Shown piece by piece: positions 1 through 4,412 of a stretch of DNA of 10,073 nucleotides (the first letter of the stretch is position 1; each line of letters begins with the position of its first letter). This stretch comes from Oscillatoria sp. PCC 10802 (GTDB lineage: Bacteria; Cyanobacteriota; Cyanobacteriia; Cyanobacteriales; Oscillatoriaceae): positions 2,730,440 through 2,740,512 of the forward strand of contig NZ_KB235948.1 in assembly GCF_000332335.1 (NCBI RefSeq), in the 5' to 3' direction. The position numbers and the translations under genes are program-made. Below the pieces are notes generated by a model. It had not been told where the DNA came from. It ran no database searches and saw only the letters and a program-made list of their open reading frames with translations.

Positions 1-116
1 GGGCTTCAGCCCAAAAGTTCGTAGTTGGGCTTCAGCCCAAAAGTTCGTAGTTGGGCTTCAGCCCAAAAGTTCGTAGTTGGGCTTCAGCCCAAAGGTTCGT
101 AGTTGGGCTTCAGCCC
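1..116. repeat. Tandem array of a 26-bp unit (GGGCTTCAGCCCAAAAGTTCGTAGTT), 4 full copies plus a 12-bp partial. Copy 4 has one A>G change. The array is truncated by the window start.
   Basis: Direct reading: units at 1-26, 27-52, 53-78, 79-104 and partial 105-116. Each unit begins with a mini-palindrome GGGC-TTCA-GCCC. Confidence 0.9.
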
Positions 117-284
117 CACACCGCCGGCAACCCCACACCCCCTGGTCCCCAAACCCCCTACCCCTTCCGCCCCAATCTCAGTCATGGGGCTGATCAGACC
201 GGCTGCAGGAACTGAATGCGACGAACTCAGCTGAGCGCACCGGCTCTCAGGGAAGCAGAAAATTTGATACAAATTTCGCTTAAG

Positions 285-314
285 TTGCCATATTCGGAAA
301 CATTATAATATAAT
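285..314 (+). promoter_or_regulatory. Sigma70-like promoter candidate: TTGCCA (285-290), 18-bp spacer, TATAAT (309-314). Predicted TSS ~321, reading into the inverted-repeat element.
   Basis: Hexamers read directly. A second TATAAT overlaps at 304-309. No experimental support. Confidence 0.3.
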
Positions 315-361
315 CTGCTGTCGGAGGGAACGCCATCTAAAGTTGAATACGATCCAGGCGA

Positions 362-627
362 TTGGAAATCGCGGCTATACAGACGAAGCCCGCCTACGCG
401 GGCTTTCATAGTAGAGCTAGACTCTCAAAATTTGCGGGGTGTTTCTCTCGTTTGATTCTCGCCGGCTTATACTGGAAATAAGCAACTGTTGCCTTGCCGG
501 TTTTGGCAGCCGTGATTTTCAATCGCCGGCATGTCCCCCCAGAAGCCTACGAGGTATAATTGCCGGAAGGAATTGGCAATAAGCAACCCGCGCAGGCGGG
601 TTTTGTCTGTATAGCCGCGATTTCCAA
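362..627. repeat. 266-bp element bounded by 23-bp perfect inverted repeats. Left arm TTGGAAATCGCGGCTATACAGAC at 362-384, right arm GTCTGTATAGCCGCGATTTCCAA at 605-627. Each arm abuts an 8/7-bp GC hairpin (385-406 and 585-604). Candidate structured sRNA or MITE-like element.
   Basis: Reverse-complement identity of the arms checked base by base. The right-hand hairpin AACCCGC-GCAG-GCGGGTT is followed by TTTTGTCTGT, terminator-like on +. No obvious target-site duplication. Confidence 0.55.
410..475. repeat. Copy A of a ~60-bp direct repeat (AGTAGAGCTAGACTCTCAAAATTTGCGGGGTGTTTCTCTCGTTTGATTCTCGCCGGC). It lies inside the inverted-repeat element.
   Basis: Aligns to 797-853 with ~85% identity. Both copies follow a CCCGC-containing hairpin. 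Confidence 0.7.
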
Positions 628-648
628 GAGACTGTTGGCGAAGTGATA

Positions 649-712
649 GGGGGTTTTACCCCACCCCCAACCCCTCACCGTTAACGGGGAGGGGAGCTTT
701 CTGGGAACCCTT
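649..712. repeat. G/C-rich palindromic mini-repeat, copy R1 (CCCCACCCCCAACCCCTCACC-GTTAAC-GGGGAGGGGA followed by GCTTTCTGGGAACCC).
   Basis: Shares CACCCCCAACCCCTC plus a hairpin with the reverse complement of 7431-7470. Shares TTCTGGGAACC with 6643-6660. Confidence 0.6.
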
Positions 713-796
713 GTTCTCCCCTTTCTCGTCTTTTATCGAAAAAAAACCCGCACATTTTGAAAGTCTCGCTCTACTCTTAGCCCGCGTTGAGCGAAG

Positions 797-853
797 AGTA
801 GATCGATACTCTCAAAAATTGCGGGGTGTTTCTCTCATTTGATTCTCACGGCT
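797..853. repeat. Copy B of the ~60-bp direct repeat (AGTAGATCGATACTCTCAAAAATTGCGGGGTGTTTCTCTCATTTGATTCTCACGGC). Preceded by hairpin TCTACTCTT-N15-AAGAGTAGA (768-800).
   Basis: Direct alignment with 410-475. Confidence 0.7.
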
Positions 854-1101
854 CACATTCTTGTGATTTCACTTTTTCTTTATAAATCACCCGCCCACCG
901 GCTCTCTCTTTCGGTAGAATTTAGTAGCCGGCTCTGACAAATGTAGCCGGAGATACAGCCAGTTAAATCAATATGAGCTATAATCATAGAAGCCGGCGCA
1001 AACAGGCGTTGCAGATGTGTGGGATGATGGGGTTCCCCGGTGGTCTAAGATGTTAATTACATAACAGCCCCTGACAAGATAAAACAAAGGAAATCTCTCT
1101 T

Positions 1102-2550: not shown

Positions 2551-2935
2551 AAAAAGTCCCGCACAGTTATCTGTGCCACCATCGGGTGAGCCGGTTGAGG
2601 ATAGATGGGCGATTGTGCCAAGCTTGATAAAATTCCGGGTAGGGCATAGTTTGGGCGCAGTGCAAGATGAGTTTGTACCACTTCTCGAATCGCTCATATT
2701 TCATTATCTAACTTATCATTTATGCTGCTTTTCTGCGGGTATATTTATCCCGTTCTGACTCGATGACTCGCACTAACGTCTCCATAGCTATTTGATTGCC
2801 GGTGCCACAAACTCCAAGTGCTGCAGCGCCAGCCGCAGGGTATTTTTCTTCATATCCTTGATGCGATCTTTGTCCAGTTCGTTTAGCGCTCGCCGCGATT
2901 CGCAGCGCCAAAAGAAACAAAATACAAAAGAGGCG

Positions 2936-2994
2936 GCTGTTAATTGTTAAGAAAATTTACTGTTATTACAATAAACCTTTAACAATTAACAAGC
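2936..2994 (-). terminator. 15-bp inverted repeat (GCTGTTAATTGTTAA / TTAACAATTAACAAGC) with a 28-nt spacer. On the - strand it is followed by a T-rich tract (CTCTTTTGTATTTTGTTTCTTTT). Candidate terminator of the protease operon, or a palindromic operator.
   Basis: Arms read directly. Lies ~113 nt beyond the protease stop on the - strand. The stem is AT-rich, which weakens the terminator reading. Confidence 0.35.
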
Positions 2995-3106
2995 CACCAC
3001 CTATTAGGCTGGGCGACGCTCACCCTACCTGCAGAATGCTTCTGCGTAAGTCCTGGTCAACTCAGGAATAAAATAGCCCTGCCTTAAAATCAAAGGGGTG
3101 GTTTGC

Positions 3107-4018
3107 CTACCGGGGTATATAATTGACAATTATGTCAGCTTTTAGCCAGCCTCGTCCCAAGTAGTCTACGATTATGCCGCCTATTCTTCTGACTCCCTTT
3201 CCTTGCAAATGGGCGTACACGTCCACACAATTTGGTTGTCCGGCAACAATCTCAATCTTTTCAAAATAGGAATAGCCTCCATCAGAAATCATTAAGGGGG
3301 GTTGCCAATTCACAATCTCGCGGGCTTCTGGAACGCAAAACCTTTGAACGACTTGGCGATTGTCTGTATGATCTACACGCACGTCAAAGCGAAAGGTTCG
3401 CTGTTGCACTGGTGGTGGGGGAGGTGGGGGAAGTGGGGGAGCATCATGAAAACTTTTGAGGTTAGGGAACTCTTCAAAAATAACCTTTGTGGGCACTCCA
3501 TACCCACCTAAATTACTATAAATGTTGCGACTATCACTAATAATGCCGCACACCTTTCCGGTGTTTTCATTTAGCAAGGGTGAACCGCTGAATCCAGGAG
3601 CAGCTTGCCCCTCAGTGAATTTGATCAATTCTGGGTTTCTCCCGCAGACACCTTCACATTTATACGTTGCTGATTCCCCCTTGAAATGACTAATTTCAGT
3701 ATAGCCATAGGTGGAAAAGGAGTCACCGACTTGGAAAGACTCATCCAAAGACACGCAAGGTTGTCTGGGAATACTATTATTTAACCGGATAAGTGCTAAA
3801 TCAACTTTAGCAGTATCTTCCGCTCTTCCCACAACTGTGGCGGGGTATTCTTGATTTTGCCAGTAAACCGTGACCGACTGCTGATCCTTAACCACATGAG
3901 CGCAGGTGAGAATCAGCCCCTCAGCAGCCACAAAAAATCCTGTTCCGCTCTCTGTATTTGCACTTATCCGCACAGTGCATTGTTTCAACTGCTCGCACAG
4001 CTCGTTCAGATCCGTCAT
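3107..4018 (-). CDS. Cytoplasmic trypsin-like serine peptidase (S1/chymotrypsin fold, compact Trypsin_2-like), 303 aa. Carries a poly-proline linker (PPLPPPPPPPV) and an unassigned ~100-aa C-terminal domain.
   Basis: Catalytic triad in canonical order and context: His in GLILTCAHVV, Asp in VDLALIRL, Ser in GFSGSPLL. No signal peptide. ATG start with GAGG about 12 nt upstream. Lies 44 bp downstream of the co-oriented small ORF. Confidence 0.8.
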   Translation of the reverse strand: MTDLNELCEQLKQCTVRISANTESGTGFFVAAEGLILTCAHVVKDQQSVTVYWQNQEYPATVVGRAEDTAKVDLALIRLNNSIPRQPCVSLDESFQVGDSFSTYGYTEISHFKGESATYKCEGVCGRNPELIKFTEGQAAPGFSGSPLLNENTGKVCGIISDSRNIYSNLGGYGVPTKVIFEEFPNLKSFHDAPPLPPPPPPPVQQRTFRFDVRVDHTDNRQVVQRFCVPEAREIVNWQPPLMISDGGYSYFEKIEIVAGQPNCVDVYAHLQGKGVRRIGGIIVDYLGRGWLKADIIVNYIPR

Positions 4019-4061
4019 CCCCTTCTTGCCTCGCTAATAGCCAAAAACTACATGTTGACCT

Positions 4062-4412
4062 TCAGTTGCTTGAAGCATCGCGTGTTGGAATGTCTTCCTT
4101 TGCCCACTCCATAGTAATTTCTAGGTTTCCCTTGCTAGAGCCTTTTACAATCAGTGCTGTTAGCTGTCCCGACTCTAGTGCAACTTCTAACCCTAATTTT
4201 ACACTCGTTTTAGTAGGCTTTACCTGCTGCAAATGGTTGACTATCGCAGCGGCAATCCCCTCAATTGAATTAGTTAAATTATCCAAAGATAAGATTTGAG
4301 ATGAAGAGCTAATCTTCTGAGAGCCACCCAGCATCCTTGCTTCAATGTTTACCTCCTGGCCATTCGGAAGCTTAACTCGAACAATTTCTGTGCGTTCTGC
4401 GCCAGATTGCAT
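4062..4412 (-). CDS. Small soluble protein, 116 aa, co-transcribed immediately upstream of the trypsin-like peptidase. Possible trypsin-co-occurring (Trypco-like) partner, regulator or substrate.
   Basis: ATG start preceded by a strong SD (CTAAGGAGAAGAAATT-ATG). Same strand as the peptidase with a 44-bp gap. Beta-rich pattern SVKLGLEVALESGQLTALIVKGSSKGNLEITMEW. No TM or signal peptide. AT-richer than the flanking genes. Confidence 0.6.
   Translation of the reverse strand: MQSGAERTEIVRVKLPNGQEVNIEARMLGGSQKISSSSQILSLDNLTNSIEGIAAAIVNHLQQVKPTKTSVKLGLEVALESGQLTALIVKGSSKGNLEITMEWAKEDIPTRDASSN

Follow-up and report, generated by a model that had tools for sequence, protein, structure and literature searches.

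The described systems closest to the element considered here are the repetitive extragenic palindromes (REPs) and their inverted doublets (REPINs), which go together with REP-associated tyrosine transposases, the RAYTs (PMC3116915, PMC3733652), the insertion sequences (ISs) of the IS200/IS605 family with their palindrome-associated transposable elements (PATEs), and the cyanobacterial subclass 1.2 of the TnpA_Y1 transposases (Quentin, Siguier, Chandler & Fichant 2018, PMC6006769). Our element lies upstream of ndh, the NDH-2 gene (start at 1102), in a stretch of 10,073 nt from Oscillatoria sp. PCC 10802 (contig NZ_KB235948.1), the whole of which we call the window. [quoted passage not shown] We conclude, with a probability of about 0.75, that positions 353-634, and on to ~860, are a gene-less mosaic of end modules from a small transposon with an IS200-type Y1 (HUH) transposase. 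The window element itself belongs to a known kind of repeat; the link of a subclass-1.2 enzyme to a phylum-wide dispersed module is possibly the new point.

The REP-RAYT system was reportedly described by Nunvar in 2010. As in that system, the modules have short hairpins, in which an unpaired GT(G/A)TAG tag, perhaps comparable to that of the REPs, is followed by CC and by a stem of 6 bp with a 3-nt loop. They are extragenic, occur in solo, doublet and clustered forms without target-site duplications (TSDs), their inverted doublets fold into long hairpins, and an apparently low-copy Y1 gene lies between two inverted copies. Nevertheless, the module's enzyme belongs to class 1 (IS200-like, Y---Q--HH) and not to class 2, that of the RAYTs (Y--NP), and each module end has two hairpins instead of one. 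Furthermore, in these genomes the canonical RAYT goes with another REP, unrelated to the module, and the window copies read GTATAG, not GTAG.

With IS200/IS605 and the PATEs the family shares a Y1/HUH TnpA (NCBIfam NF033573, Pfam PF01797), hairpins at both ends and the lack of TSDs. The complete unit is likewise very small (531-600 bp), and a GC hairpin lies just upstream of the ribosome-binding site of tnpA, as in Salmonella IS200, where the left-end hairpin is a terminator that blocks incoming transcription. This equivalent position suggests, by analogy, that the GC hairpin may have the same transcription-blocking role. However, tnpA here is apparently low-copy and, in Nostoc, stays at one fixed locus, while ends without the gene are numerous, and there is no tnpB. 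Subclass 1.2, described as cyanobacterial, low-copy and with a median of 148 aa (PMC6006769), has the same invariant DH[IV]H, WQ and Y---Q--HH as the module's enzyme, which is also cyanobacterial, has 137-155 aa and is suggested to be of low copy number; the difference is that in 12 loci we found the gene bracketed by two-hairpin modules which are also dispersed without it.

Regarding the MITEs of Nostocales, both Nezha and the 'type II' MITEs of Anabaena sp. 90 (PMC3542288) are, like this family, small, non-coding, multicopy, intergenic inverted-repeat elements, but Nezha (Zhou 2008) has 10-bp direct repeats (PMC6042816) and an ISNpu3-like partner. The group 1 MITEs of Anabaena 90, compared by description only, have three sets of inverted repeats, nested in one another, and no IS that matches them (PMC3542288).

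The dispersed module and its Y1 transposase gene

The module has about 50 nt and can be written as GGCGATTGGAAATCGC-GGCTAYACARAC-hairpin, that is, a small hairpin of 6 bp, (C)CnGGCGATTGGAAATCGC, an unpaired linker, GGCTAYACARAC, and a GC hairpin, AAACCCGCCTGCGCGGGTT. Its core 21-mer GGAAATCGCGGCTATACAGAC was found in exact form at 34 loci in about 25 species-representative cyanobacterial genomes, namely those of many Nostoc, Anabaena, Oscillatoria princeps, Oscillatoria sp. Prado101 and one Leptolyngbyaceae metagenome-assembled genome; O. princeps RMCB-10 had 8 such loci plus degenerate ones. The core made degenerate at two positions gave 76 metagenome loci. The fetched sample consisted of 110 loci (34 genome + 76 metagenome, 768 kb; loci carry L numbers below), and copy counts come from genomes other than the source. 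A profile of the module gave 270 matches in 115 loci. Almost all the strong copies (41/42) were intergenic, often less than 100 nt from a gene 3'-end or between convergent genes. In the plasmid collection there were just four weak module matches, without annotation, and a literature text search with the module sequence string gave no match.

Clustering of open reading frames (ORFs) at the first 34 loci returned ordinary neighbours alone, e.g. kinases and peptidases. Among the metagenome loci, an ORF of 139-168 codons with HVHLL and YIRNQ recurred in 10, and it lay between or beside modules in 9 of the 76 sampled (L080, L100, L054, L078, L079, L058, L090, L087 and L104). For instance, L080 has a module at 147-198 (+), the ORF at 207-623 and a module at 677-624 (-), and L100 has the same arrangement at 2604-2657 (+), 2658-3074 and 3151-3098 (-). 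The enclosed HUH/Y1 protein, of 137-155 aa, scored 73-90 bits on NF033573 (IS200/IS605 transposase; cutoff 55) and 87-101 bits on PF01797 (Y1_Tnp). Homologues 70-96 % identical occur in Nostoc, Nodularia, Scytonema, Kamptonema, Coleofasciculus, Microcoleus, Phormidium, Lyngbya and Leptolyngbya, and the protein clusters lie mostly on one contig each, suggesting a low copy number.

The three loci that were fetched by protein (Phormidium nigroviride L122, Nostoc L124 and Lyngbya aestuarii L126) all had a module directly upstream of the gene, its GC hairpin ending 7-30 nt before the ATG, and at least one downstream. The tnpA units have the same ~50-nt module at either end, in inverted orientation and facing inward, and the window arms are 84-95 % identical to these ends. 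Eight residues (H55, H57, W95, Y115, N118, Q119, H122 and H123) were invariant in 12 sequences from 9 genera, and the motifs H-x-H, KWQ and Y-x3-Q-x2-HH match 'subclass 1.2' of the Y1 superfamily.

Covariation analysis, which the earlier note had proposed as a check, showed for the family copies that the module stems co-vary and that the linker is nearly invariant. Among 68 distinct copies outside the selection made by the search pattern, the linker was 94-100 % conserved at most positions. In the same copies the small hairpin switched pairs (AT/GC 40 to 27, TA/AT 49 to 18), as did the GC hairpin (CG/TA 45 to 22, AT/GC 45 to 21, GC/AT 56 to 10), with pairing kept at 97-100 % in both. An alignment of 34 copies (A4) contained 26 double-change cells vs 8.2 in shuffles, a signal which collapsed when columns were slid by 1-3. 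Judged from these sequences, stems kept as structure alone beside a sequence-specific single-stranded motif are the pattern expected of an HUH-enzyme substrate. In the family consensus, GTYTGTRTAGCC (which reads GGCTAYACARAC on the opposite strand) precedes a stem of 6 bp with a 3-nt loop, and conservation of the tag is 87-100 %; the Nostoc right arms all have GTAG, and the window copies have GTATAG.

Most copies no longer have the gene and occur as inverted doublets, solo modules or tandem arrays. Most of the inward-facing adjacent pairs (71/80) span 90-133 bp and are gene-less doublets, and the four that contain tnpA account for the 531-600 bp given above. In the arrays, whole doublets with a linker of ~25 nt recur 2-4 times in head-to-tail order, one every 136-166 bp, satellite-like and without unique spacers (L081:200-900, L095:1650-2250, L049:2100-2438, L070 and L121). 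A CRISPR-like reading was considered and rejected, as there were no unique spacers and whole-unit tandem duplication was found instead. L019, with arms 3 kb apart, was tried as a full-length IS, but its arms merely flank a penicillin-binding protein gene; a reading as omega-RNA/TnpB was also discarded, there being no tnpB or iscB nearby.

Regarding the surroundings of the Y1 gene, in Nostoc (L124:1-5414) the gene (137 aa) and its modules lie between a DndC-like (PAPS_reduct) and a DndD-like (SMC/AAA_23) gene, also beside DndB and BrxL, and L100 and L087 share a left neighbour. The Nostoc Y1 gene is inside a defence island and, in several strains, apparently at a fixed locus. Its neighbours in Lyngbya L126 are TIR-WD40 and SLATT genes.

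Insertions of 19-30 nt were also seen at fixed module sites, after TACAG or in hairpin loops, for example TTCGCGTAGCGTTCTGCAGGAA (L014:2995-3027, L015 and L034 in the right hairpin loop, L011:7134-7194, L019:4201-4261, L013 and L038:~320-375). They resemble the 'small dispersed repeats' (SDR) that Elhai is said to have described in Nostocaceae in 2008; if that is what they are, the module would be one of their habitual hosts.

The mosaic upstream of ndh

The arms of the window element, 362-384 (+) and 605-627 (-), are complementary at 23/23 positions and each has a GC hairpin beside it, at 386-405 and 585-602, as the earlier note had said. The 23-mer occurs at these two window sites alone, even when 3 mismatches are allowed (expected 0, 200 shuffles), and the inverted repeat can be extended to 355-402 / 587-634, 48 nt at 88 %. 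The closing points at 362 and 627 had to be given up, since by the family profile the conserved modules run over 353-406 and 584-634, and sequence of the repeat family reaches ~860 via blocks at 410-460, 628-737, 738-796 and 797-860.

Copy 1 of the end module (353-406, plus strand; nhmmer with the family profile, E = 9.8e-18) consists of the small hairpin GCGATT-GGA-AATCGC at 358-372, the unpaired linker GGCTATACAGAC at 373-384 and the GC hairpin AAGCCCGC-CTAC-GCGGGCTT at 386-405, and its core 21-mer is the one found at the 34 genome loci. Compared with the ends of the tnpA-bearing units, this copy has 84-90 % identity. Copy 2 (584-634, minus strand; E = 4.6e-16) has, in plus-strand order, the GC hairpin AACCCGC-GCAG-GCGGGTT at 585-602 followed by a T-run, the linker GTCTGTATAGCC at 605-616 and a truncated small hairpin at 617-627, so that the right arm retains half of the outer small hairpin.

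Next to copy 1 there is an extension block, AGTAGAGCTAGACTCTCAAAATTTGCGGGGTGTTTCTC... (410-460, plus strand), which is the first copy of a 51-bp direct repeat and also lies 3' of the module in Oscillatoriales copies, namely in O. princeps and Oscillatoria Prado101 loci and in the Logan contig L038. The second direct copy begins at 797 (797-860, plus strand; repeat D2, 410-460 / 797-847 at 90 %). Between them, an inverted copy with a remnant of the GC hairpin and without an arm takes up 738-796 (minus strand), as seen from the inverted repeats I3, which pairs the block with 738-775, and I2 (738-781 / 791-834), and from the alignment with O. princeps L011. Window 588-796 is collinear with L011 6928-7135 (87 % over 210 nt). 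Part of this mosaic is the conserved flank GAGACTGTTGGCGAAGTGATAGGGGGTTTTACCCC with the G/C-rich palindromic spacer CCCCTCACCGTTAACGGGGAGGGG at 628-737; the flank adjoins the arm in L011 and L028 too.

The interior, 461-584, is without a relative in the fetched loci (blastn of 448-584 against the 34 genome loci gave none), apart from a degenerate third arm, GGCGATTGAAAATCACGGCT..., on the minus strand at 500-532, which is 84 % complementary to the left side (I5, 352-376 / 508-532) and has weak matches to the arms of tnpA units. The window copy has a foreign or decayed interior. The bacterial interspersed mosaic elements (BIMEs) of enterobacteria are similar, since they too are clusters of mosaic build between genes, made of REP-type hairpins and, in alternation with them, a small number of conserved linker blocks. 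In the window, the flank, the spacer and the extension block behave alike, although sequences, host and partner enzyme are unrelated. As a separate observation, the extension block (436-457, 816-844) is 82-83 % identical over 22-29 nt to L080:369-397, inside tnpA (E = 0.005-0.7), which may be chance or may hint at an origin of the block from the gene.

The comparison with L038, whose NDH-2 is 98 % identical, shows an indel at this site. This contig is orthologous to the window over 67-353, at ~93 % identity, and again from ~797 to ndh (aligned to ~1110). At the left-arm position it has a single module, with another arm variant and a 30-nt insertion, and it is without ~387 bp (410-796 or 461-847). 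This segment, in which the right arm lies, has the 51-bp direct repeat at its boundaries. L038 has the left module position and not the right-arm DNA; therefore, 362-627 is not one insertion unit. In Argonema genomes (NDH-2 at 79 % identity) the region upstream of ndh had neither a module nor any nucleotide similarity. Furthermore, four Logan short-read contigs with identical NDH-2 all end at window 704-705 (starts of L001, L002 and L003). Ends at ~704, just right of the element, agree with a break of the assembly where the sequence is repeated or polymorphic. As far as its sequence indicates, the ndh upstream region is a recombining repeat cluster, and it should carry a warning as one where assemblies break.

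Regarding the mechanism, the TnpA of IS608 and ISDra2 and the RAYT enzymes recognise their ends when these are folded as single-stranded DNA. By analogy, the Y1 enzyme would recognise the modules in trans in the same form, reading the stems as structure and the invariant linker GGCTAYACARAC as sequence, and would cut beside that linker. Gene-less doublets could be mobilised in trans and copies could have spread in this way, after which homologous recombination between copies would have reshuffled them into mosaics like that of the window. Any effect at the ndh locus would be incidental, for example an insulation of ndh from a promoter-like site at 285-314 by the right-hand hairpin and its T-run.

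Several observations weigh against this reading. The Y1 gene and the dispersal of the module are known from other genomes, the source being represented by this window, and transposition of the family is inferred from sequence. The window pair spans 282 bp, outside both size classes, so this copy perhaps never moved as one unit, and tblastn with TnpA found no tnpA remnant between its arms. Many sampled copies are in arrays or at orthologous sites; a doublet is present at one orthologous site in eight Nostoc species, and therefore many copies are old and static. Co-variation of the stems would fit a role at the RNA level equally. Finally, classical IS200/IS605 members lack ~50-nt inverted repeats such as the module ends, and subclass 1.2 was described as not IS-like, without REPs and IS-like ends (PMC6006769).

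Nevertheless, the window element is quite probably selfish repeat DNA of an ordinary sort, a REPIN/PATE-like and non-autonomous derivative of a Y1-transposon, rather than a gene dedicated to a small RNA. More tentatively, and at somewhat less than even odds, the subclass-1.2 Y1 protein may service a phylum-wide REPIN-like population of which the window element is one copy. If this were true, filamentous cyanobacteria would run two parallel systems of domesticated transposase and hairpin repeats per genome, one being the canonical RAYT with GTAGGRTGCGTTA REPs and the other the IS200-like enzyme with two-hairpin modules, and the REP-RAYT lifestyle would have arisen independently within class 1 of the Y1 superfamily. 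A very widespread cyanobacterial 'orphan MITE' module is linked to a specific small Y1 transposase, the orphan enzyme subclass 1.2 gains a candidate DNA substrate, and the link would help to mask repeats and to type strains in Nostocales and Oscillatoriales.

Alternative explanations

An exapted regulatory element of ndh, serving as terminator, insulator or mRNA-stabilising structure, would be compatible with a mobile origin, and we consider it unlikely. The right hairpin (585-602), which the earlier note had recognised as terminator-like, is followed by TTTTGTCTGT and called so on the plus strand by the terminator scan, so it fits an intrinsic terminator and would stop transcripts from a promoter-like site at 285-314 before ndh; the frequent position of copies near gene 3'-ends or between convergent genes would also suit such a role. 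However, the left hairpin (386-405) has a tail of 3 T and got no call from the scan, and the arrangement is kept neither in the closest relative, L038, nor in Argonema.

Somewhat less probable still is a stand-alone structured sRNA, which would start at ~321 from the 285-314 site and end at the right hairpin with its T-run, its ends paired over ~41 nt. Apart from this terminator-like end, it has in its favour the predicted sigma-70-like site itself, TTGCCA-18-TATAAT on the plus strand, which the earlier note had pointed out and which as a sequence matches 11/12 consensus positions. The site lies outside the repeat family, and 2 such sites were found within 1-1200 vs 0.7 expected. Its hexamers are identical in L038, which is uninformative because the surroundings are also ~93 % identical. 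Where paired RNA ends over ~45 nt had been predicted, folding of 350-640 does give a very stable terminal stem of ~41 bp, but it does so with equal strength on the two strands (z = -8.4 and -9.3, one per strand), as is to be expected of DNA inverted repeats.

The other evidence also speaks against an sRNA. The scan against Rfam that had been suggested gave zero matches at gathering thresholds over the whole window, and at permissive thresholds the best was CRISPR-DR28 on both hairpins, with 28-29 bits vs a threshold of 35. Arms and hairpins are generic modules of the family, and the perfect 23-nt match would arise because both arms belong to one subfamily of a near-invariant core, and not from a selected RNA stem. 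Furthermore, the interior has no homologue in the fetched loci, the 3' half is not in the strain with 98 % identical NDH-2, and nothing comparable is conserved upstream of ndh in Argonema. The candidate sRNA can thus be removed from the annotation of the window, and the perfect inverted repeat is explained as repeat-family DNA.

A classical MITE, i.e. a deletion derivative of a DDE insertion sequence (Nezha-like) that moved by cut-and-paste and is flanked by TSDs, is as improbable as the sRNA. The element does have terminal inverted repeats, is small, non-coding and intergenic, and is multicopy in relatives, and MITEs are abundant in Nostocales and Oscillatoriales (PMC11602168). What stands of the earlier MITE proposal is a dispersed multicopy family whose interior is not conserved, both of which the note had named among the signs that would favour a MITE. 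However, there was no TSD at 353/634 in the window, and among 47 doublets with distinct flanks, examined at six boundary offsets, 29 had none and the rest had matches of 2-3 nt, none longer than 3 nt. ORF clustering in the 110 loci returned no recurrent DDE transposase beside the module, the sole recurrent module-enclosed neighbour being the Y1 transposase, and the window element is not a single insertion.

The least probable reading of all is a REPIN that belongs to the canonical RAYT of cyanobacteria, a protein of 183 aa. RAYTs are widespread in cyanobacteria, and the inverted extragenic doublets, whose short hairpins have the conserved tag GT(G/A)TAG, recall such a REPIN. However, the RAYT genes of Kovacikia, Gloeocapsa and two Nostoc are flanked by another REP, GTAGG(A/G)TGCGTTA...TAACGCA, there is no module within 3-4 kb of the RAYT genes examined (loci L041-L045), and the module-enclosed enzyme has 24-29 bits on the RayT model NF047646, with a cutoff of 80.

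The cyanobacterial RAYTs had been found with the E. coli RayT as query, its sequence confirmed vs PDB entry 4ER8. The 183-aa RAYT is bracketed by GTAGG(A/G)TGCGTTA...TAACGCA(T/C)C at L041:2900-3625, L042, L043:3730-4700 and L045:3730-4820. Copies of its REP also lie near modules in the Oscillatoria loci L012 and L019, and therefore two hairpin-repeat systems coexist in these genomes.

Neighbouring genes and repeats

Two small ORFs, 439-582 (+) inside the element and 227-409 (-) overlapping it, gave no record on look-up. Further downstream, at 3107-4412 on the minus strand, there is a trypsin-like peptidase gene (303 aa) and then a gene of 116 aa with the trypsin-co-occurring domain Trypco1. 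This pair is not in the syntenic Argonema loci, where ParE-like or other small genes are found.

At the left end of the window, positions 1-116 (plus strand) hold 4.5 tandem copies of a 26-bp unit, GGGCTTCAGCCCAAAAGTTCGTAGTT (TRF, 98 % matches), which is a separate neighbouring repeat. The unit consists of a GTAG tag, a 7-bp stem and a 2-nt loop, and it is REP-like but arranged head-to-tail. It was also found in the O. princeps loci L010, L011 and L026 and in L038.

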